A stretch of 34,379 bases of DNA, taken from a virus. Its lineage: Duplodnaviria > Heunggongvirae > Uroviricota > Caudoviricetes. The stretch is from the IMG/VR virus record IMGVR_UViG_2778261181_000004, one strand, 5' to 3'. The position numbers and the translations under genes are program-made. Below, piece after piece: positions 8,045 through 18,202 of the stretch. The notes beneath the pieces were generated by a model that was not told the DNA's origin, did not search any database, and saw only the letters and a program-made list of their open reading frames with translations. Each line of letters opens with the position of its first letter. Within the stretch, counting starts at the first letter, position 1.

Positions 8045-8413
8045 CTACTTGGTGGTATTTGCCTTCGATGAGGCAAGATAGGCATCAAGATCACTTTTTA
8101 GGTAAATAACCTTTCTACCGATTTTTAAAAAAGGTATTCGAACTTTTCCTGTGCTAGCCCAATTAGCTAAGGTTTGCGCTTCTACGCCGATATAGGCTGC
8201 GGCGTCTTCTCTATTCATTTTTTCATGTTGTTCTGACAGAATACTCGTTGCTTCAAAATCAAAGCCCAGCCTTTCAAAGGCATAGATAATAGAGCCCAAA
8301 GCCATTTGTTTAACTGTTCTGTAGTTACTGCTTTCAACTTGGCTTAATGCAGTTTTTGCTGCTTCAATCACCACAAGCCAGGCATCTCGTTGGTTGTCGA
8401 TACTGCCATCCAT
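8045..8413 (-). CDS. DNA-binding protein with C-terminal excisionase/MerR-type helix-turn-helix; first gene left of the repressor
   Basis: ATG 8413 with GGAGA RBS; C-terminal AAAYIGVEAQTLANWASTGKVRIPFLKIGRKVIYLKSDLDAYL resembles HTH_17-type DNA-binding domains. Confidence 0.55.
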   Translation of the reverse strand: MDGSIDNQRDAWLVVIEAAKTALSQVESSNYRTVKQMALGSIIYAFERLGFDFEATSILSEQHEKMNREDAAAYIGVEAQTLANWASTGKVRIPFLKIGRKVIYLKSDLDAYLASSKANTTK

Positions 8414-8591: not shown

Positions 8592-9218
8592 CTAGAGTTC
8601 GTATTGAACTCCTTTGACTACACCAATGATGAGGCAATTACCATTGATCGGGATGTTGGGGTACCGGGGATTTAATGGCACTAAAAACTTTTGAGGGCCA
8701 TCGATAACTAATTTTTTTACTGTGGCTTCGTTTGTTCCATCAAGTCTAGCGATGACTATTTTTCCATGCCGGGGTTCTGCATCAGGATCTACAATCACTG
8801 TTGCGCCTTCTGGTATTGTTGGGAGGCCGTTAGGGTTAGTCATGGAGTCGCCTTTAACCTCCAATGCAAATGAGTTATCACCAATCTTTAATGATGTATC
8901 TACCCACTTGTCTACTTCACTAAACACTTCTGCTGTCCTGCACTCAGTAAACTGCCCAGCCTGAACCCACGAGATTACAGGAACTCTGCGCATGTTTGTG
9001 ACGAGTTTGCCTTCAAACTCCGCACCATAAAGAATGTAATCTATTGACGTATTGAAGAACTTCGCTAATTTTGAAAGTGCTTCCCCACCAGGGACATTGA
9101 TGTCTTTCTCCCAGTACCCCACAGCAACGTCACTTACTCCACAAAATTTACCCAATTCTTTCTGGGACGTTCTGGTAACTCTTCTCAGAGCTTTTATACG
9201 CTGACCAACCGTTTCCAT
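8592..9218 (-). CDS. cI-like prophage repressor (N-terminal HTH plus C-terminal S24 LexA-like autopeptidase domain)
   Basis: N-terminal HTH (QKELGKFCGVSDVAVGYWEK); C-terminal domain with GDSM active-site Ser motif; divergent from a cro-like gene. Confidence 0.85.
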   Translation of the reverse strand: METVGQRIKALRRVTRTSQKELGKFCGVSDVAVGYWEKDINVPGGEALSKLAKFFNTSIDYILYGAEFEGKLVTNMRRVPVISWVQAGQFTECRTAEVFSEVDKWVDTSLKIGDNSFALEVKGDSMTNPNGLPTIPEGATVIVDPDAEPRHGKIVIARLDGTNEATVKKLVIDGPQKFLVPLNPRYPNIPINGNCLIIGVVKGVQYEL

Positions 9219-9315
9219 AGGAGCACCATTTCTTTAATTACTAAGTAATCTTAGTTTTTATTGACCTAAGATAGATTGATAATTAACATCTAATAAAACT
9301 TAGTTTGGAGGGCAT
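9219..9315. promoter_or_regulatory. Right operator/promoter region (oR / pR / pRM analogue)
   Basis: Inverted repeat ACTAAGTAATCTTAGT at 9240-9255; CTTAGTT copies at 9250-9256 and 9299-9305; candidate -35 TTGACC (9261-9266) and -10 TAACAT (9284-9289); GGAGGG RBS before the cro-like ATG. Confidence 0.5.
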
Positions 9316-9553: not shown

Positions 9554-10138
9554 GTGGGTAAAGAACCTGAATGGAAAGTTGATAAGCAACCAGCATGGCT
9601 GGTGGCAGCAATACGAAGAACGATTGCTGATTTACCTCATGGCTATGAGGAAGCAGCAGAAATTCTTGGTTTGTATAAATCTGATGATATCACCCCAGCA
9701 AAAGATCAATTGCATAACAGACTGCGTAGCGGTGGGGATCAAATTTTTCCACTTGAGTGGGCCATGGTTTTACAGGATGCCAGTGGTACCAGGCATGTAA
9801 CGGATGCAATAGCCCGTCGTAGTAATGGGGTGTTTGTGCCGCTGGTGGTCATTGATGACATTGACAATGGTGACATTAATCAGCGGCTGATGGAGTCAAT
9901 AGAATGGATTGGCAAGCATTCCCAGTACTTACGCAAGGCAACTGCTGATGGAGTTATTGACCAAGCTGAGCGTGAGCAAATCGAAGAGAACAGCTACCAA
10001 GTAATGGCGAAGTGGCAGGAGCATTTAACACTGTTATTTCGTGTTTTTTGTGCGCCGGAAAAGAGTAACGCCCGCGAGTGTGCAGCTCCGGGCGTCGTGG
10101 CGTCGATTGCTTCTGGTTGTGGAGAAACTAACGCATGA
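9554..10138 (+). CDS. CII-like regulatory protein (phage CP76 / YdaT-type family)
   Basis: Immediately downstream of the cro-like gene; preferred start GTG 9554 with GAGGG RBS 8 nt upstream (alternative ATGs at 9497 and 9509; ORF-track start 9440 overlaps cro). Confidence 0.6.
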
Positions 10139-10473
10139 ACAGTTTAACAACACACTACCGTCGTTCGCAACTGATTGCGCTTCCTGTACCGGGTGGAAAA
10201 GCGAAGGTGGAATATTGCTATGCAGTGAATGTACCAGGTGACAGGGAAATTGTAACCCACAGCTTTGCAGAGTGGGCTGTGGGTGATTTCAACCGGCAGA
10301 AGGAGACAGTCCTTTGCGACAAGTTAACCGCTGGTTCAAAGATCACTACGGAGTGCCCGTCAGAGTCATTCGTTGGGAGCCGGAAACACAACGGGTTATC
10401 TACCTCCGTGAAGGCTATGAACATGAGTGCTTCAGCCCGCTCGAACAGTTTCGTCGTAAATTCAGGGAAATAG
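10135..10473 (+). CDS. Hypothetical protein between the cII-like and O-like genes; C-terminal third may be out of frame
   Basis: ATGA overlap with the upstream stop; ends 10 nt before the O-like start; a second frame (TTG 10314, AAGGAG RBS, to 10526) encodes more protein-like sequence. Confidence 0.4.
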
Positions 10474-10482
10474 AGGTCGGTC

Positions 10483-11475
10483 ATGAGCCTGTTAATGACA
10501 TCCCAGCCCATTGTGATAAATCGTGATCTTGCATGCCGTATTGGTCTGAATGAGGCAATTGTGTTGCAGCAGCTTCATTACTGGCTGAATGAAACGAATT
10601 CCGGCACTGAGCATGGCGGAATTCGCTGGGTTTATAACACGACAGAACAGTGGCTGGAGCAGTTTCCGTTCTGGTCAGAGTCCACTCTGAAACGCACATT
10701 TGCAAGCCTGAAATCACTTGGGGTTTTGCGTCGCGAGCAACTCAATAAATCGAAGCGTGACATGACCAACTTCTACACGATCAACTATGAAAGTGAGCTT
10801 CTAGAAGAGGTCAAAGTGAACGAATCCATCAGGTCAAAATGCACTTCTCCATCGGGTCAAAGTGACCTGATGGATGGGCGCAAAATGACACGATCCATTG
10901 GTTCAAAACGACACGCTGTCATCGGGTCAAAATGGCCCAATGATCTTACAGAGAATACAACAGAGATTACTACAGAGAATAAAACCTCTTCTCGTCCGGA
11001 CGCTTCGCAACCGGACACGCAGATGGCTGAACAGGATTTTTTAACTCGCCATCCTGATGCGGTTGTATTCAGCCCTAAAAAGCGCCAGTGGGGAACGCAG
11101 GATGATTTGACCTGCGCACAGTGGCTCTGGAAAAAAATCATCGCTCTGTACGAGCAGGCCGCCGAATGTGACGGCGAAGTGGTACGTCCTAAAGAACCGA
11201 ACTGGACAGCCTGGGCAAACGAAATTCGCCTGATGTGTGTACAGGATGGGCGTACTCACAAACAAATCTGCGAGATGTACAGCCGCGTCAGCCGCGATCC
11301 GTTCTGGTGCCGTAACGTGCTCAGCCCGTCGAAGCTGCGGGAAAAATGGGATGAGCTTTCCCTGCGCTTATCGCCGTCCGTCAGCACGCACACAGAAAAA
11401 CGCGAAGACCCGTACTTCAAAGCCAGTTACGACAATGTGGACTACAGCCAGATCCCGGCAGGATTCAGGGGGTGA
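10483..11475 (+). CDS. Replication initiation protein, lambda O-like, with the origin embedded in the gene
   Basis: Position after the cII-like gene; internal iteron array and adjacent AT-rich tract; AGAGG RBS. Confidence 0.7.
   Translation: MSLLMTSQPIVINRDLACRIGLNEAIVLQQLHYWLNETNSGTEHGGIRWVYNTTEQWLEQFPFWSESTLKRTFASLKSLGVLRREQLNKSKRDMTNFYTINYESELLEEVKVNESIRSKCTSPSGQSDLMDGRKMTRSIGSKRHAVIGSKWPNDLTENTTEITTENKTSSRPDASQPDTQMAEQDFLTRHPDAVVFSPKKRQWGTQDDLTCAQWLWKKIIALYEQAAECDGEVVRPKEPNWTAWANEIRLMCVQDGRTHKQICEMYSRVSRDPFWCRNVLSPSKLREKWDELSLRLSPSVSTHTEKREDPYFKASYDNVDYSQIPAGFRG
10805..10940 (+). repeat. Origin iterons: about six direct repeats of a GGTCAAA(A/G)TG-type core
   Basis: Cores at about 10809, 10830, 10855, 10878, 10901 and 10925 (spacing 21-25 bp), followed by an AT-rich ACAGAGA-repeat tract at 10941-10990. 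Confidence 0.6.
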
Positions 11476-11477
11476 TC

Positions 11478-11966
11478 ATGAGTCTTTTGAATGAAGCTCA
11501 GAAATTCATTGAAGCCCATCCGGGGTGTACTTCCGGAGACATTGCGGATGCTTTTGCAGGTTACTCACGGCAGCGCGTTCTGCAGTCAGCAAGCAAGTTA
11601 CGTCAGAGTGGGCGTGTGGCTCACCGTTGTGAAGGAGATACACGCAGACATTTCCCACGCCTGACTGAGAGAGCGCAGGAGCCGGAACCACAACCAGTTC
11701 GTGAAACCAGACCTGTGCGCAATTTCTATGTCGGCACTAACGATCCCCGGGTGATTTTGTGCCTGACCCGCCAGGCTGAAGAACTGGAGTCCAAGGGCTT
11801 ATACCGTCGTGCTGCAACCGTGTGGATGGCGGCATTCCGTGAAAGCCACTCCCAGTCAGAACGAAACAATTTTCTGGCGCGCCGTGAGCGGTGCTTACGG
11901 AAAAGCAGCAAGCGCGCTGCATCGGGTGAAGAGTGGTATCTGTCAGGGAATTACGTGGGGGCTTAA
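11478..11966 (+). CDS. YfdN-like protein; C-terminal region resembles PerC/ANR-type regulators (tentative)
   Basis: ATG 11478 after AGGGGGTG, overlapping the O-like stop; C-terminal LTRQAEELESKGLYRRAATVWMAAF motif; sits where lambda P would be. Confidence 0.5.
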   Translation: MSLLNEAQKFIEAHPGCTSGDIADAFAGYSRQRVLQSASKLRQSGRVAHRCEGDTRRHFPRLTERAQEPEPQPVRETRPVRNFYVGTNDPRVILCLTRQAEELESKGLYRRAATVWMAAFRESHSQSERNNFLARRERCLRKSSKRAASGEEWYLSGNYVGA

Positions 11967-12619
11967 TGAGTAATAAATATTGCCAGGCGCTGGTGGAACT
12001 GCGGAACAAACCAGCCCATGAACTGAAGGAAGTGGGCGATCAGTGGCGCACGCCGGACAACATTTTCTGGGGAATTAACACCCTGTTTGGCCCGTTTGTT
12101 CTGGATCTGTTCACTGACGGTGATAACGCCAAATGTGCCGCGTATTACACGGCGGAAGATAACGCGCTGGCGCATGACTGGTCAGAACGTCTTGCGGAGC
12201 TTAAAGGTGCTGCCTTTGGTAATCCCCCATACAGCCGCGCCAGTCAGCATGAGGGGCAATACATCACCGGCATGCGTTACATCATGAAACATACCAGTGC
12301 CATGCGTGATAAGGGCGGGCGCTATGTTTTCCTGATCAAAGCTGCCACCAGCGAAGTGTGGTGGCCGGAAGATGCGGACCATATTGCTTTTATTCGCGGG
12401 CGTATTGGTTTTGAACTGCCTGCCTGGTTTATCCCGAAGGATGAGAAGCAGGTGCCGACAGGAGCTTTCTTCGCTGGTGCTATTGCTGTTTTCGACAAGA
12501 CCTGGAAGGGACCGGCAATCAGCTACATCGGGCGCGATGAACTTGAGGCATGTGGTGAAGCCTTTCTGGTGCAGGTTCGCCAGCAGGCGGAAAAACTGGT
12601 CAGGGAGATGGCAGCATGA
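11966..12619 (+). CDS. Phage Dam-like N6-adenine DNA methyltransferase
   Basis: Catalytic NPPY motif (FGNPPYS); TAATG overlap with the upstream stop; typical nin-region location. Confidence 0.75.
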   Translation: MSNKYCQALVELRNKPAHELKEVGDQWRTPDNIFWGINTLFGPFVLDLFTDGDNAKCAAYYTAEDNALAHDWSERLAELKGAAFGNPPYSRASQHEGQYITGMRYIMKHTSAMRDKGGRYVFLIKAATSEVWWPEDADHIAFIRGRIGFELPAWFIPKDEKQVPTGAFFAGAIAVFDKTWKGPAISYIGRDELEACGEAFLVQVRQQAEKLVREMAA

Positions 12620-12942
12620 CGACGTTAACTCAATGCCAGCAGCAGGTGCTGGATATGCTGATTTCTTACCAGAAAGAACGTGGCTTCCCGCCAACCAATC
12701 AGGAGGTGGCAACCATGCTGGGATACCGTTCAGTGAATGCAGCGGTGGAGCATCTTCGCGCACTGGAGAAAAAAGGCGTCATTACGATAAAGCGTGGCGT
12801 GGCCCGGGGGATAACGCTTCATACCGCAGTGAAGGACGACGACAGAGAGGCGGTCGGGATTATCCGCTCACTGCTTGCCGGTGAGGAAAACGCAAGGCTG
12901 CGTGCAACCCACTGGTTACATGAGAGGGACCTGAAAGTATGA
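12616..12942 (+). CDS. LexA DNA-binding-domain-like protein lacking the S24 autopeptidase domain
   Basis: N-terminal 70 aa (QQQVLDMLISYQKERGFPPTNQEVATMLGYRSVNAAVEHLRALEKKGVI) closely parallels the LexA N-terminal winged helix; protein ends after about 108 aa. Confidence 0.7.
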   Translation: MTTLTQCQQQVLDMLISYQKERGFPPTNQEVATMLGYRSVNAAVEHLRALEKKGVITIKRGVARGITLHTAVKDDDREAVGIIRSLLAGEENARLRATHWLHERDLKV

Positions 12943-13328
12943 AGCTGATCCTGCCTTTTCCGCCCAGCGTGAACACGTACTGGCGACATCCCAACAAAGG
13001 GGCGTTTGCTGGTAAGAGCCTGATAAGCGCGGCGGGGCGAAAATTCCAGAGCGCGGCGTGCGCAGCAATAGTTGAGCAGTTACGTCGTCTGCCAAAACCA
13101 ACGTCGGCACCTGCTTCAGTGGAGATCGTGTTGTTTCCTCCGGATAACCGGATCCGCGATCTGGACAACTATAACAAGGCGCTGTTTGACGCCCTGACCC
13201 ACGCGGGTGTGTGGGAAGACGACAGTCAGGTGAAAAGAATGCTGGTGGAGTGGGGACCGGTTATCCCGGAAGGGAAGGTCGAGATCACCATCAGTAAGTA
13301 CGAGAAAACGGCGGGTGCAGCCGCCTGA
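12939..13328 (+). CDS. rusA: RusA-family Holliday junction resolvase
   Basis: ATGA overlap with the upstream gene; motif pattern LPFPPSVNTYWRH ... DLDNYNKALFDALT ... WEDDSQV matches RusA. Confidence 0.8.
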   Translation: MKLILPFPPSVNTYWRHPNKGAFAGKSLISAAGRKFQSAACAAIVEQLRRLPKPTSAPASVEIVLFPPDNRIRDLDNYNKALFDALTHAGVWEDDSQVKRMLVEWGPVIPEGKVEITISKYEKTAGAAA

Positions 13329-13347
13329 TCAAGAGGAGAAACGAAGT

Positions 13348-14157
13348 ATGAATAATCTGATGGTCATTGATGGTATTGAAGTTCGTCGTGATGCTTATGG
13401 GCGTTACAGCCTGAACGATCTGCACAGGGCTGCCGGGGGAGAACAAAAAAACCGCCCGAAATACTGGCTCTCCAATAAGCAAACCTGTGAATTGATTGAA
13501 CAACTTTTCACCGAGGGTGGAATTCCGCCTCTGGAACAAAATCAACCAGTTAGCGTCATTAATGGCGGAAATAACCAGGGGACGTATGTCTGCAAAGAAC
13601 TGGTGTATGCCTATGCAATGTGGATCAGCCCGTCATTCCATCTGAAGGTGATCCGTACTTTCGACATGGTAACCAGCGCACCGGAAAAATTATCCGGACA
13701 GGCTGCTGACAAGATGCAGGCTGGCGTGATCCTGCTGGACTTTATGCGCCGGGAATTAAATCTGTCTAACTCATCAGTGCTTGGAGCCTGTCAGAAGCTT
13801 CAGGAGGCTGTTGGCTTACCGAATCTGGCACCGCGCTATGCCATTGATGCTCCTGCTGACGCGCCTGATGGCTCAAGTCGCCCCACGCTGTCGCTGAGTG
13901 CACTGCTGAAGCAGTATGGTATCCGCCTGACAGCTAATCAGGCATATCACCAGATGGCGAAGCTGGGGATCGTTGAACAACGTGAACGATACAGCCGCAC
14001 TGCGATTAACAACATCAAAAAATTCTGGTCGCTGACAGCGAAAGGCTGCATGTTCGGCAAAAACATCACCAGTCCCGCAAATCCGCGCGAGACGCAGCCG
14101 CATTTCTTCGAATCCCGATTCCCTGAGCTGTTAAAGCTGCTCGATACCGTTCATTGA
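13348..14157 (+). CDS. KilA-N domain protein (antirepressor-like) with uncharacterised C-terminal domain
   Basis: ATG 13348 with GAGGAG RBS; N-terminal KilA-N-like region MNNLMVIDGIEVRRDAYGRYSLNDL ... ELVYAYAMWISPSFHLKVIRTFD. Confidence 0.6.
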   Translation: MNNLMVIDGIEVRRDAYGRYSLNDLHRAAGGEQKNRPKYWLSNKQTCELIEQLFTEGGIPPLEQNQPVSVINGGNNQGTYVCKELVYAYAMWISPSFHLKVIRTFDMVTSAPEKLSGQAADKMQAGVILLDFMRRELNLSNSSVLGACQKLQEAVGLPNLAPRYAIDAPADAPDGSSRPTLSLSALLKQYGIRLTANQAYHQMAKLGIVEQRERYSRTAINNIKKFWSLTAKGCMFGKNITSPANPRETQPHFFESRFPELLKLLDTVH

Positions 14158-14158
14158 G

Positions 14159-15154
14159 GTGACCGTGAGAGCACTACTGACCCCTGAAATTGCCCCGCGT
14201 ATGGGGATCGTATTGTTCAGGCCAGGTTCAGAGCTGATGCCCCTGTTTATGCAGGGGCGTGTTCTGCTGGAGCCTGAGCCGGAACGTTACTCATCTTTCG
14301 CCAGTGGTGCCGTTCCGGCGGCATCACAACCGCTGGCGGATGATCCTGCCGTTCGGGCCGTGTTCCGCAATGAGGCAGTGATCCGTCGTGCTGGTGGCGT
14401 GGAATGTCTTGAAAGCTGGTTACTTCGTGAAAAAGGCTGCCAGTGGCCTCATTCCGACTGGCACAGCGAGAACATGACCACAATGCGACACGCTCCGGGT
14501 GCAATCCGTCTGTGCTGGCACTGCGATAACCAGCTGCGCGATCAGTTCACGGAACGGCTGGAATCAATGGCAACGGATAACTGTGCCCGCTGGGTGTTGT
14601 CTGTTGTGCGTCGGGATCTCGGTTTTGATGATAGTCACGTTGTGACAATGCCGGAACTGTGCTGGTGGCTGATTCGTAATGATCTGGCGGATGCCTTACC
14701 GGAAAGTGCAGCCCGTAAGGCACTGAGATTACCGAAGCCTGTTGTGCCGTCTGTTACCCGGGAAAGTGACCTTGTGCCTTCGGTTCCTGCCACCAGCATC
14801 ATCCAGGATAAAGTGAAAAAGGTGCTGGCGCTGAAAGTGGATCCGGAGTCGCCGGAGTCTTTTATGTTACGCCCAAAACGTCGCCGCTGGGTTAATGAAA
14901 AGTACACGCGCTGGGTTAAGACACAGCCGTGTGCATGTTGTGGTAAGCCTGCTGATGATCCCCACCACCTGATAGGTCACGGTCAGGGTGGAATGGCTAC
15001 AAAAGCGCATGACCTCTTTGTGTTGCCTTTGTGCAGAAAGCATCACGACGAGCTGCATGCGGATACCGTGGCATTTGAAGAGAAGTATGGCTCCCAGCTG
15101 GAGCTGATATTTCGTTTTATCGATCGTGCGCTGGCAATAGGCGTGCTGGCCTGA
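14159..15154 (+). CDS. DUF968-family nin-region protein with C-terminal HNH/zinc-finger-like motif
   Basis: GTG start 2 nt after the upstream stop; C-terminal CACCGK ... DPHHL ... LPLCRKHHDELH cluster. Confidence 0.55.
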   Translation: MTVRALLTPEIAPRMGIVLFRPGSELMPLFMQGRVLLEPEPERYSSFASGAVPAASQPLADDPAVRAVFRNEAVIRRAGGVECLESWLLREKGCQWPHSDWHSENMTTMRHAPGAIRLCWHCDNQLRDQFTERLESMATDNCARWVLSVVRRDLGFDDSHVVTMPELCWWLIRNDLADALPESAARKALRLPKPVVPSVTRESDLVPSVPATSIIQDKVKKVLALKVDPESPESFMLRPKRRRWVNEKYTRWVKTQPCACCGKPADDPHHLIGHGQGGMATKAHDLFVLPLCRKHHDELHADTVAFEEKYGSQLELIFRFIDRALAIGVLA

Positions 15155-15171
15155 TTTTGTGGAGAAAGTTG

Positions 15172-15543
15172 ATGCGTGATATTCAAATGGTTCTTGAACG
15201 TTGGGGGGCATGGGTGGCAAATAATCACGAGGATGTGGAATGGTCATCTGTTGCTGCAGGTTTTAAGGGATTAATTCCTTCGAAAGTAAAATCCCGCCCG
15301 CAATGTAGCGATGACGATGGCCTGATCATTAGCTCTGCGATGACAGTTCTTAAGAAAAAGGAACCGTATCAATACGAATTACTGGAAATGTATTATGTGT
15401 ATGGGGTTACATTACGGGCGTTGGGGGTAAAACTGGGGATATCACTTAATCAGGTTGTTATCAGACTGCAGAAAGCTGAAGGGTTTATTGACGGTTGTCT
15501 GGCAATGTTGGGGGTATCTTTAGAAATTGATTGTTACATATAG
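15172..15543 (+). CDS. Late-gene antiterminator Q (phage 82/21-type Q family)
   Basis: ATG 15172 with GGAG 7 nt upstream; N-terminus MRDIQMVLERWGAWVANN matches the Q-family start; lies upstream of the lysis cassette. Confidence 0.7.
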   Translation: MRDIQMVLERWGAWVANNHEDVEWSSVAAGFKGLIPSKVKSRPQCSDDDGLIISSAMTVLKKKEPYQYELLEMYYVYGVTLRALGVKLGISLNQVVIRLQKAEGFIDGCLAMLGVSLEIDCYI

Positions 15544-15618
15544 TAATAAATTCAATCAAAGTAAATAATCATATTTTATTATAACCTCCTGATGATACCT
15601 GTTCATTGGGAGGTTATT

Positions 15619-16236
15619 ATGGATAAAAATGTAGAGCATGTATTAGTTGATGCAATTGAAAATAAGCTATCTTTAACAGTCGTTTACTTAGGAGGGAGCC
15701 AGCCCGGAACATTAAGGAATATTTCTCCGATTAGTATAAATGGGGATAAATTGCGGGCAAGATGCCATAGTTCTGGAGCAGTAAAGGTTTTCAATCTTGG
15801 GAAAATACAGTTACCCAGTGACTCCTGCGCGGTATCTATGCACTATGGAGATTTAGAAGTTAAAGCTTATGAGACGATGCAGAGCGTAAATGACAACTTT
15901 CATGCCCTTTATCCTGAAGGACGATGGGGTGTTGATTTTAATGAGCATCGCTTTGCTTTATTTGATTTTTTTAAAAACGGGAAACGAAAAAAAACGGCAT
16001 TTATGGCAATTGAGTTCAGGGAAAGAGATGAAGAGAAAATAATAACAGGTGTAACAATTGATATTGGTATATCTGGAACAGTGATTTCTGAGAAGTCCCG
16101 AATCCCAAAAAGACGACCATGGGTAGTGGTTGGTCCCGAACACGGAGAATACAGTACTTATTCAACTTTGGACAAGGCTGCTACAGCGTTTTTTGAGAGG
16201 CTATCGTTGATAGCATCCGGCCTGGAAGATAATTGA
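15619..16236 (+). CDS. Hypothetical protein, AT-rich moron directly downstream of Q; function unknown
   Basis: ATG 15619 with GGGAGG RBS; 205 aa; composition clearly more AT-rich than flanking genes; no motif recognised. Confidence 0.6.
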   Translation: MDKNVEHVLVDAIENKLSLTVVYLGGSQPGTLRNISPISINGDKLRARCHSSGAVKVFNLGKIQLPSDSCAVSMHYGDLEVKAYETMQSVNDNFHALYPEGRWGVDFNEHRFALFDFFKNGKRKKTAFMAIEFRERDEEKIITGVTIDIGISGTVISEKSRIPKRRPWVVVGPEHGEYSTYSTLDKAATAFFERLSLIASGLEDN

Positions 16237-16365
16237 TTTTATGTTTGGTATTCAGAGTTCGCCGTGCTTAAGAAAGTCAAGATTCTAAAAATACTGAATG
16301 AGCTACTTGTGTTATAACAAAAATGCTATTAGTGTGTTAAGAGTGGTTACTTCGACACACAACTT

Positions 16366-16390
16366 AAACCCGCCACTGAGCGGGTTTTTT
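16366..16390 (+). terminator. Intrinsic terminator downstream of the moron
   Basis: AAACCCGC / GCGGGTTT stem, CACTGA loop, then TTTTTT. Confidence 0.7.
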
Positions 16391-16488
16391 GTACCTGTAA
16401 ACTTGGTGCAGTACAGTAAACACGCTGGTGGTCGTGAATACTGACTTTTTATCTTGCTGGCTTTTTAGACAAGAGTTATTGGTATGTC

Positions 16489-16716
16489 ATGTTAACCAGA
16501 AGGGAAAAAGACATGCTAAAACAGCAAGATATGACAGAAACCGCCGCCGCAGTCCTTCATTTCTTACCTGCTGACAAGTGGGTAACGCCACGCATGATGA
16601 CGAGAACTACCGGAGTAAGCGAAGCCCGGTGCCAGTTAATACTGACTCAGTTAGTTCTGGCGGGTCTGGCGAAGGATAACGGCGGGTACGGGAATAAATT
16701 CAGACGCTGCCAGTAA
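16489..16716 (+). CDS. Small putative DNA-binding (winged-helix-like) protein upstream of the methyltransferase
   Basis: 75-aa ORF; alternative start ATG 16513 with AAGGGA RBS; weak helix-turn-helix-like segment TRTTGVSEARCQLILTQLVLAGLA. Confidence 0.4.
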   Translation: MLTRREKDMLKQQDMTETAAAVLHFLPADKWVTPRMMTRTTGVSEARCQLILTQLVLAGLAKDNGGYGNKFRRCQ

Positions 16717-16866
16717 TGGCGGTTTCCTGCTGTGAAAATGGGCGGCTGGTGGGTGTTGGTAGCACCTGCCAGCCATTCGCTCATGCTTACTGGTCACAAG
16801 CGAACCACGGCCCACTGCTTTAGCGCAAAAGCAGAGTGAGCCTACCAGAGTTACGCTTACTGATCC

Positions 16867-17919
16867 ATGAAAAATACTGTAAAAATAAACAGTGTTGATT
16901 TAATCAACGCTGATTGCCTGCATTTTATTCAGTCCCTGCCTGATGATTCCATTGACCTGATTGTTACCGATCCGCCGTACTTCAAGGTGAAACCCAACGG
17001 TTGGGACAATCAGTGGAAAGTGGACGAAGATTACCTTAAGTGGCTGGACCACTGCCTGGCCCAGTTCTGGCGGGTGTTAAAACCTGCCGGAAGCCTTTAT
17101 CTGTTCTGTGGGCATCGCTTGGCATCTGATATTGAGATCATGATGCGTGAACGTTTCAACGTGCTTAACCATATCATCTGGGCGAAGCCGTCCGGACGTT
17201 GGAATGGGTGTAATAAAGAAAGTCTGCGCGCATATTTTCCTGCCACAGAGCGCGTTCTGTTTGCTGAACATTACCAGGGGCCATATCGCGGCAAAAGTGA
17301 CGGCTATGCAGCAAAAGAAAGGGAACTCAAACAGCACATAATGGCACCGCTGATATCGTATTTCAGGGATGCTCGTGCCGAACTGGGTATAACGGCAAAA
17401 CAAATTGCCGAAGCCACAGGTAAGAAAAATATGGTTTCCCACTGGTTTGGTGCCAGTCAGTGGCAGTTGCCGAATGAGGCTGACTATCGGAAGTTACAGG
17501 CACTGTTTTCCCGTATAGCGGCAGAGAAGTTTCAGGAACAACAACTGGAACAACCACACCACCAGCTGGTGGCATCTTATGATTCACTGAATCGCAAATA
17601 TTCTGAATTGCTGGATGAGTTTAAATCTCTCCGGCGCTATTTCTCCGTATCAGTCTCCGTGCCTTATACCGATGTCTGGATGCATAAACCCGTTCAGTTC
17701 TACCCGGGGAAACATCCGTGTGAGAAACCGGCGGATATGCTCAGGCAAATAATCAATGCCAGTAGTCGACCAGGTGATCTGGTTGCTGATTTTTTTATGG
17801 GATCCGGTTCCACAATAAAAGCAGCAATGGCGCTGGGGCGTCGGGCCTTAGGTGTTGAGCTTGAGTCAGAGCGGTTTAACCAGACAGTGACAGAGATAAA
17901 CGAGCTGGTGGGGAAATAA
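16867..17919 (+). CDS. Orphan beta-class DNA methyltransferase (N6-adenine or N4-cytosine)
   Basis: DPPY motif near the N-terminus (LIVTDPPYF) and AdoMet-binding FxGxG near the C-terminus (DFFMGSGST); no adjacent restriction endonuclease gene. Confidence 0.8.
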
Positions 17920-17925
17920 TCTGGT

Positions 17926-17950
17926 GGCCACGTCAGGTGGCCTTTTTATT
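17926..17950 (+). terminator. Intrinsic terminator between the methyltransferase and the holin
   Basis: GGCCAC / GTGGCC stem with GTCAG loop, followed by CTTTTTATTT. Confidence 0.6.
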
Positions 17951-17986
17951 TCCATTACACAGCACCCGCATCTGCGAGGTGGGGTT

Positions 17987-18202
17987 ATGAAATCCATGGA
18001 TAAGTTAACAACGGGTGTCGCCTATGGCACCTCAGCAGGTAGTGCCGGGTACTGGTTTTTACAGTTGCTCGATAAAGTCACGCCCTCACAGTGGGCGGCA
18101 ATAGGTGTGCTGGGTAGTCTGGTATTTGGCTTGCTGACGTATCTGACAAACCTTTATTTCAAGATTAAAGAAGACAAGCGTAAGGCTGCACGGGGAGAGT
18201 AA
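17987..18202 (+). CDS. Holin with dual-start motif (class II-like, 71 aa)
   Basis: Tandem starts ATG 17987 and ATG 17996 (M-K-S-M) after GAGGTGGGG RBS; TM segments; charged C-terminus [13 protein letters not shown]. Confidence 0.75.

Follow-up and report, generated by a model that had tools for sequence, protein, structure and literature searches.

The Dam enzymes of phages T1 and HP1 methylate GATC. They belong to the PF05869 family, together with M.EcoVT2Dam of phages 933W and VT2-Sa, which has been listed as a GATC enzyme (PMC6602927, Table 3), and PamA of Staphylococcus aureus, which has an NPPY site and whose DNA becomes sensitive to DpnI (PMC12435837); PMC7556043 also cites the T1 and HP1 enzymes as GATC methylators. 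M.EcoGI and M.EcoGII of Escherichia coli O104:H4 C227-11, L24 of phage phiP27 and PhiOS31_p25 of a Serratia phage have the beta-class order of motifs (DPPY ... FxGxG). M.EcoGII methylates adenine in any context, is silent in the lysogen, is harmful when it is made constitutively, and is thought to be induced together with its prophage (PMC5778455). PhiOS31_p25, which is 67% identical to L24, has extremely relaxed specificity and is encoded directly before the lysis cassette, and its DNA is partially resistant to several restriction enzymes that are sensitive to N6-methyladenine (m6A) (PMC7556043). Here we analyse a stretch of 34,379 nucleotides of Caudoviricetes DNA (IMG/VR record IMGVR_UViG_2778261181_000004; "the window" denotes this stretch at its full length). 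The window represents a lambdoid prophage of E. coli with complete immunity, replication and lysis modules, and it carries two methyltransferase genes, one related to each of these sets of enzymes. The two genes probably encode partner-less adenine methyltransferases, each active in its own phase of lytic growth, and self-protection of the phage is the function that fits best. The genes and their catalytic motifs, the latter from a motif scan, are located as follows.

11966..12619, + strand: first methyltransferase, 217 residues, phage N6-adenine methyltransferase (PF05869/TIGR01712), the intact form of K-12 yfdM
12221..12232, + strand: catalytic motif IV, NPPY (within FGNPPYS), residues 86-89 of the first methyltransferase
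16867..17919, + strand: second methyltransferase, 350 residues, beta-class, M.EcoGI/GII family (PF01555 N6_N4_Mtase)
16969..16980, + strand: catalytic DPPY motif, residues 35-38 of the second methyltransferase

The open reading frame (ORF) of the first methyltransferase starts with the ATG at 11966, which is preceded by a GGGGG ribosome-binding stretch, and ends with a TGA stop at 12617-12619. The family membership is established directly. The protein matches PF05869 ("Dam") with an E-value of 1.9e-45 and 155 bits (cut-off 28.1), and the NCBIfam equivalog TIGR01712 ("phage N-6-adenine-methyltransferase") with 252.8 bits (cut-off 97.05) over the entire profile (positions 1-165 of 165). These matches, and the location between an O-like gene and Q, bear out the first-pass annotation of the window, which had reported an NPPY adenine methyltransferase in the nin region. 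Its description of the enzyme as Dam-like is appropriate with respect to function, but not with respect to family, as the Dam enzymes of E. coli and T4 belong to PF02086 and not to PF05869.

The catalytic motif of the first enzyme is intact. Among 24 homologues, down to 32% identity, P87, P88 and Y89 of the NPPY motif are invariant and N86 is nearly so. The same alignment has 16 invariant columns, including D25, W27, T29, D47, N54, N66, A67, PPYS, G117, G145 and R146. As these columns are kept across all 24 homologues, the window copy appears to be intact, consistent with purifying selection. The more distant 933W/VT2 Dam, T1 Dam and the PamA-type enzyme of S. aureus phage 88 have in common with it the residues W27, T29, P30, L46, D47, N54, C57, L68 and W72, and also N86-Y89, G145, R146 and F149. 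A sequence search of the PDB with the protein returned no methyltransferase chain at E-values up to 1, and a predicted structure was therefore used. The prediction confidently shows the fold of a class I S-adenosylmethionine (SAM)-dependent N6-adenine methyltransferase, and its best structural match is PCIF1, the messenger RNA (mRNA) cap adenosine methyltransferase. In a six-frame scan of the long ORFs of the whole window, the pattern [DNS]PP[YFWH] occurs just twice, as the NPPY of the first and the DPPY of the second enzyme.

With respect to the target site, the first enzyme is best compared with T1 Dam, HP1 Dam, VT2 Dam and PamA. By analogy with these enzymes, it most likely makes G(m6A)TC. 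All of them have the NPPY motif and a conserved N-terminal W-x-T-P ... L-D block, and all are encoded by small orphan phage genes. In the numbering of the phage 88 enzyme, P65 of PamA falls within NPPY. The 933W/VT2 Dam is 30% identical to the first enzyme, and its gene is also located in the nin region; T1 Dam is 28% identical over the N-terminal half. The window enzyme differs from the characterised members of the family by an extra N-terminal helix and by a long C-terminal helix (residues 190-216).

The second enzyme matches PF01555 with an E-value of 6e-42 over residues 29-340. Its DPPY motif is close to the N-terminus, and FMGSGST (residues 310-316) follows C-terminal to it, which is the beta-class order also found in M.EcoGI, M.EcoGII, phiP27 L24 and PhiOS31_p25. 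The family membership and the intact catalytic motif are thus established directly for this enzyme as well, and the earlier assignment of the gene to the beta class stands. Over the full length, the protein is identical to phiP27 L24 in 288 of 350 residues (82%) and to M.EcoGII in 280 of 349 (80%), a count that may contain a few errors, since the M.EcoGII sequence was machine-read from the PDF supplement of PMC11551740. The residues that differ from M.EcoGII, about 20% of the total, are in many cases located in the central region. The gene is located downstream of Q (15157-15543) and upstream of the holin gene (17987-18202), a position that its counterparts in phages cdtI, P27 and OS31 also have. 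As tested relatives are found on both sides of it, the second enzyme is likely to be a non-specific adenine methyltransferase. A literature search on the expression of M.EcoGII at induction brought up nothing useful.

Neither gene appears to have a restriction partner. The Pfam scan covered the 30 ORFs between positions 1 and 19154, and ten of these were also scanned against PADLOC; no restriction endonuclease family was detected among the 30 ORFs in Pfam or among the ten in PADLOC, the ORFs beyond 19154 being unscanned. A related prophage in strain MARGA_3, which is 98.6% identical across a 6-kb segment that holds both methyltransferase genes, has no restriction gene in its annotation as a whole. 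Beyond the point that corresponds to the end of the window, it has only tail tip, Lom, tail fibre, invertase, DinI and integrase genes. The neighbours of the first gene are the genes for PerC, a LexA-domain protein, RusA, KilA-N, DUF968/HNH and Q, and those of the second are a small winged helix-turn-helix-like ORF and the holin gene. In Type II restriction-modification systems, the cognate nuclease gene normally adjoins the methyltransferase gene, and this arrangement is found for neither of the two. The first-pass annotation, which had noted the lack of a cognate restriction gene, was correct in this respect. The DUF968/HNH protein (14159-15154) was considered as a nuclease partner and rejected: it is the product of a widespread nin-region gene, has no PADLOC match, and is encoded three genes away.

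The surroundings of the two genes comprise the following features.

1-1200 (left end): host DUF2713 gene; the window begins in host DNA
1466-1954: SocA/Panacea antitoxin-domain protein, at the left end of the prophage
1977-2525: ORF of 182 residues without assigned function, directly after the SocA/Panacea gene
8592..9218, - strand: CI-type repressor (HTH_3 and Peptidase_S24 in Pfam), which marks the immunity region
9261-9289, + strand: promoter-like site right of the CI-type repressor gene, from a consensus promoter scan
10483..11475, + strand: replication initiation protein, O-like/DnaD-like (phrog_391, E-value 6.9e-102), the left boundary of the nin-equivalent region
11472..11966, + strand: PerC-family (YfdN) protein (PF06069)
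12616..12942, + strand: protein of 108 residues with a LexA DNA-binding domain only (PF01726)
15157..15543, + strand: antiterminator Q (PF06530, E-value 5.2e-48), which closes the nin-equivalent region on the right and acts as the switch to late transcription
15592-16236: ORF of low GC content (about 0.41) directly after Q, without Pfam or PADLOC match
16366..16390, + strand: terminator-like hairpin, CCCGC...GCGGG followed by six T, read from the sequence, after ORF 15592-16236
16489..16716, + strand: small ORF that immediately precedes the second methyltransferase gene, 53% identical to phiP27 L23, without Pfam match
17926..17950, + strand: G+C-rich hairpin with a T run behind it, terminator-like, in the gap that separates the second methyltransferase gene from the holin gene
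17987..18202, + strand: holin S of the P21 type (PF04971), which opens the lysis cassette

The gene order is directly established. If lambda is a guide, the first methyltransferase gene is part of a rightward early operon that begins just right of the CI-type repressor gene. The operon encodes, in this order, a CII-like protein, the O-like replication protein, PerC/YfdN, the first methyltransferase, the LexA-domain protein, RusA, KilA-N, DUF968/HNH and Q. The ORFs 10135-10473, 10483-11475, 11472-11966, 11966-12619 and 12616-12942 overlap or are separated by at most 10 nucleotides, and the same tight packing continues through the ORFs 12939-13328, 13315-14157, 14159-15154 and 15157-15543. At the upstream junction of the first methyltransferase gene (TAATG), the TAA stop of the PerC/YfdN gene and the ATG have one base in common. 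At the downstream junction (ATGA), the stop of the methyltransferase gene overlaps the ATG of the LexA-domain gene. The LexA-domain protein has no protease domain, is translationally coupled to the methyltransferase, and accompanies it in thousands of genomes; a role as a LexA mimic that resists cleavage is conceivable.

In the late region, ORF 15592-16236, for whose homologue PGAP gives the label "WYL domain-containing protein", and the hairpin at 16366-16390 together have a moron-like layout. The ORF at 16489-16716 is 53% identical to the phiP27 gene in the same place, so that it travels with the second methyltransferase gene as a cassette; its product might control or assist the enzyme. RefSeq calls phiP27 L23 a TrmB-family regulator, and counterparts of the ORF occupy the same place in cdtI and MARGA_3. 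The region around the second hairpin (17905-17995) has a folding energy of -36.4 kcal/mol, with a z-score of -3.0. The holin, DUF1327 and lysozyme genes come after the second methyltransferase gene and this hairpin, the start of the holin gene being set at the ATG behind a GGUGGGG ribosome-binding sequence.

As judged from the MARGA_3 prophage, the left end of the element is probably complete in the window, whereas the right end, with the tail tip, tail fibre and integrase genes, lies outside it. The prophage of MARGA_3 is located in the 5' end of dusA, with a dusA fragment at its left end and the integrase gene beside the intact dusA at its far end. At the left end of the window, the SocA/Panacea gene and the following ORF (1466-2525) could form a pair that acts in defence or as toxin and antitoxin; PADLOC has no match for either ORF. 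The leftward early block encodes an exonuclease, DUF551, Ea22-like, HD-domain YfdR-like and DUF2303/YfdQ proteins. Beyond 19154, there are long ORFs on the same strand, arranged like the terminase, portal, capsid and tail genes of MARGA_3 up to the tape-measure protein.

Both genes, and also the pair, have already been described and are very common, which the first-pass annotation had missed. DNA of the first gene is present, at 95-100% identity, in 2120 of 5426 complete E. coli genomes; about 400 of the 2120 keep less than 80% of the gene. The four-gene module around the first gene is found in 2703 genomes and the second gene in 1249, while both genes in the same order, with the whole 6-kb stretch, occur in at least 319. 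Sequenced phages with the same genes include mEp460, vB_EcoS-569R4, the PhiR phages from ECOR13, fifteen Stx2c (Shiga toxin 2c) phages, cdtI and 1720a-02. In cdtI, both proteins are annotated, with 98.6% and 99.4% amino-acid identity to the window proteins. Earlier reports cover the two families, describe the genes as orphans located on prophages, and note that they occur together in E. coli strains (PMC5778455, PMC6602927, PMC4659465, PMC7556043). The finding is thus an ordinary one, as both genes represent well-known phage families that are present in thousands of E. coli genomes, and it has little weight as a discovery, since annotations of the pair exist for published phage genomes as well as for hundreds of E. 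coli chromosomes.

The database entries for the first gene are not uniform. Several phage records in RefSeq and GenBank, NC_019716 (mEp460), PP925833 (Kati) and NC_049941 (WGPS2), name it "phosphoadenosine phosphosulfate reductase". The source of the label seems to be phrog_33262, a profile of 495 positions for a fusion of phosphoadenosine phosphosulfate (PAPS) reductase and Dam, which the first enzyme matches at positions 283-492 only. Genuine fusions of the Dam (PF05869) domain with PAPS-reductase or C5-cytosine methylase domains exist among distant relatives. Many other entries have PerC and Dam in one protein of 380 residues, and a few join Dam with the LexA-domain protein; nearly all of them are singletons. 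The likely cause of these entries is a wrong base or a mistake in gene calling at the TAATG or ATGA junction.

The location of the two genes suggests a division of labour in time. Upon loss of the CI repressor, the first enzyme would be made as a delayed-early product, together with the replication and recombination genes, since its gene is packed without gaps in the string that leads from the replication gene to Q. It would keep the GATC sites of the fast-replicating phage DNA fully methylated when the host Dam is limiting or absent. The second enzyme would be made only upon Q-dependent late transcription, together with the lysis and structural genes, as its gene is placed between Q and the holin gene. 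Right before the DNA is packaged, it would then methylate adenines with a weak sequence preference at most. With its coat of m6A, the progeny DNA would, in the next host, escape many of the restriction enzymes that are sensitive to this mark. What each enzyme targets, when it is expressed and how the phage benefits are the parts of this scheme that we infer.

Several observations weigh against the scheme. Identity between the first enzyme and the characterised GATC enzymes amounts to just 24-42%, so that its specificity, for which we infer GATC, could differ. The window contains 134 GATC sites, compared to 133 expected from a zero-order and 163 from a Markov model, and the sites are thus neither enriched nor avoided; the longest gap without a GATC site spans 1.5 kb (15324-16862). 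As these counts are unremarkable, the window sequence gives no independent support for GATC targeting. Among the accessible papers, we found no experiment on the 217-residue YfdM-type subfamily, and a search of the literature returned neither a published specificity nor a solved structure for a YfdM-type enzyme. It seems that their specificity has so far escaped a read-out, since methylation of GATC would be hidden by host Dam and lysogens probably do not express the gene. The scan for consensus promoters found no more sites than in shuffled sequence; the scan being uninformative, the expression timing is deduced from gene order. The two terminator-like hairpins flank the late cassettes, which is also the layout of morons, genes that prophages can express. 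The possible errors in the M.EcoGII sequence belong here as well.

The first-pass annotation had left the choice between self-protection and an epigenetic role. Self-protection fits the second enzyme well, in view of its identity to M.EcoGII (about 80%) and L24 (82%), while the epigenetic half of the proposal is weaker. It appears unlikely that one or both enzymes act as epigenetic regulators in the lysogen, as do M.EcoGIII of a Stx phage and PamA of S. aureus, because the operons are expected to be under repressor control, and because homologues of the second enzyme have been reported to be silent in lysogens. Both genes are part of rightward operons behind the CI repressor and Q, as far as control can be judged from gene order. 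M.EcoGI and M.EcoGII are not expressed in C227-11, and their constitutive expression harms the cell (PMC5778455); M.EcoMV, a homologue of M.EcoGI in ST131, was judged inactive by reverse transcription PCR (PMC4659465). Moreover, host Dam already methylates about 99% of the E. coli GATC sites, which would leave little for another GATC enzyme to do in a lysogen. In favour of the epigenetic idea, a PF05869 member, PamA, changes the virulence of its S. aureus host: the protein, with P65 in its NPPY motif, alters abscess virulence via its methylase activity (PMC12435837). The terminator-like hairpins that bracket the late-region cassettes, as they do morons, would also be in line with expression in the lysogen.

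The remaining alternatives concern mostly the first enzyme. It is quite unlikely, although not without precedent, that it acts on another DNA motif or on RNA, possibly directed by the product of a neighbouring gene. The low identity to the characterised GATC enzymes, the small size of the protein without a separate target-recognition domain, the overlap of its gene with both neighbours (PerC-like and LexA-domain), and the best structural match to an mRNA cap enzyme, PCIF1, would all be compatible with such an activity, and the MT-A70 enzyme of a Stx phage requires PNB-2 to methylate 16S ribosomal RNA (rRNA) (PMC10810198). There is also a slim chance that the YfdM-type subfamily either has a target other than GATC or works together with the overlapping YfdN and LexA-domain proteins as a phage switch; if so, methylation would be tied to SOS or to lysis-lysogeny control. 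It is very improbable that the genes no longer function and are cargo that decays within a cryptic prophage. K-12 has a mere stump of yfdM, and truncated copies of the first gene are found in about 400 of the 2120 genomes, but the window copy is full-length and retains every invariant residue, and the copies in the 2120 genomes are 95-100% identical. In addition, the immunity, replication and lysis modules are complete, the ORFs beyond 19154 parallel structural genes of MARGA_3, and genes that are almost the same occur in phages whose complete genomes have been deposited. The probability that the first enzyme provides the modification activity of a restriction-modification system, with the nuclease gene outside the window, is close to nil. 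The right end of the prophage does lie outside the window, and the best-matching PADLOC models are named "MTase_II", but cognate nuclease genes are normally adjacent, and the first gene is surrounded by PerC, LexA-domain, RusA, KilA-N, DUF968 and Q genes instead. Past the end of the window, MARGA_3 has only tail, Lom, invertase, DinI and integrase genes, and the same module is found in many different phage backbones. We therefore favour two orphan enzymes with successive roles in lytic growth, most plausibly in self-protection.

Several known enzymes were considered as relatives of the first enzyme and rejected. Hia5 and Hin1523, which are non-specific, are related to Dam and DpnM and belong to a different family. 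M.EcoMIV, the "Dam homolog" of ST131, is a PF02086 protein. M.EcoGV is, by its position on Stx2 prophages, probably the MT-A70 gene near the integrase gene. The rRNA methyltransferase of Stx phages, M.EcoPA8orf6770P (PMC10810198), is an MT-A70 enzyme with a DPPW motif, encoded in the left arm of the phage. The first enzyme has no MT-A70 match in Pfam, and no DPPW is present in any long ORF of the window. M.EcoPA8orf6770P, which acts with PNB-2 as a 16S rRNA methyltransferase, resembles the first enzyme in being a small orphan prophage adenine methyltransferase that is annotated as a DNA methylase. It differs in family (MT-A70 instead of PF05869), in motif (DPPW instead of NPPY), and in location (near the integrase gene in the left arm instead of the nin region).

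The first gene was also rejected as a member of the E. coli Dam/T4 Dam family, as it has no PF02086 match, no match to a solved chain, and a different order of motifs. The alpha-class enzymes E. coli Dam, T4 Dam and DpnM (PF02086) have the SAM-binding motif, an inserted target-recognition domain and DPPY, in this order. The first enzyme does not follow this order: about 40 residues separate its SAM-binding region from NPPY, there is no inserted recognition domain, the protein is about 60 residues shorter, and its only Pfam match is PF05869. In contrast, the similarity to K-12 YfdM, encoded in the cryptic prophage CPS-53/KpLE1, is complete over the first 89 residues, which are 100% identical, and yfdN (PerC) is located upstream in both cases. 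The K-12 gene (8113-8388 of the K-12 segment) is annotated as "putative methyltransferase" and encodes a stump of 91 residues, broken right at NPPY, whereas the window copy (11966-12232 in the aligned part) is intact. In phages mEp460 and cdtI and in Stx2c phages, the corresponding proteins have 97-99.5% amino-acid identity to the first enzyme, and the genes are part of the same PerC/methyltransferase/LexA-domain/RusA module. The second gene is a natural allele of M.EcoGII, the enzyme that is used for chromatin and RNA footprinting.

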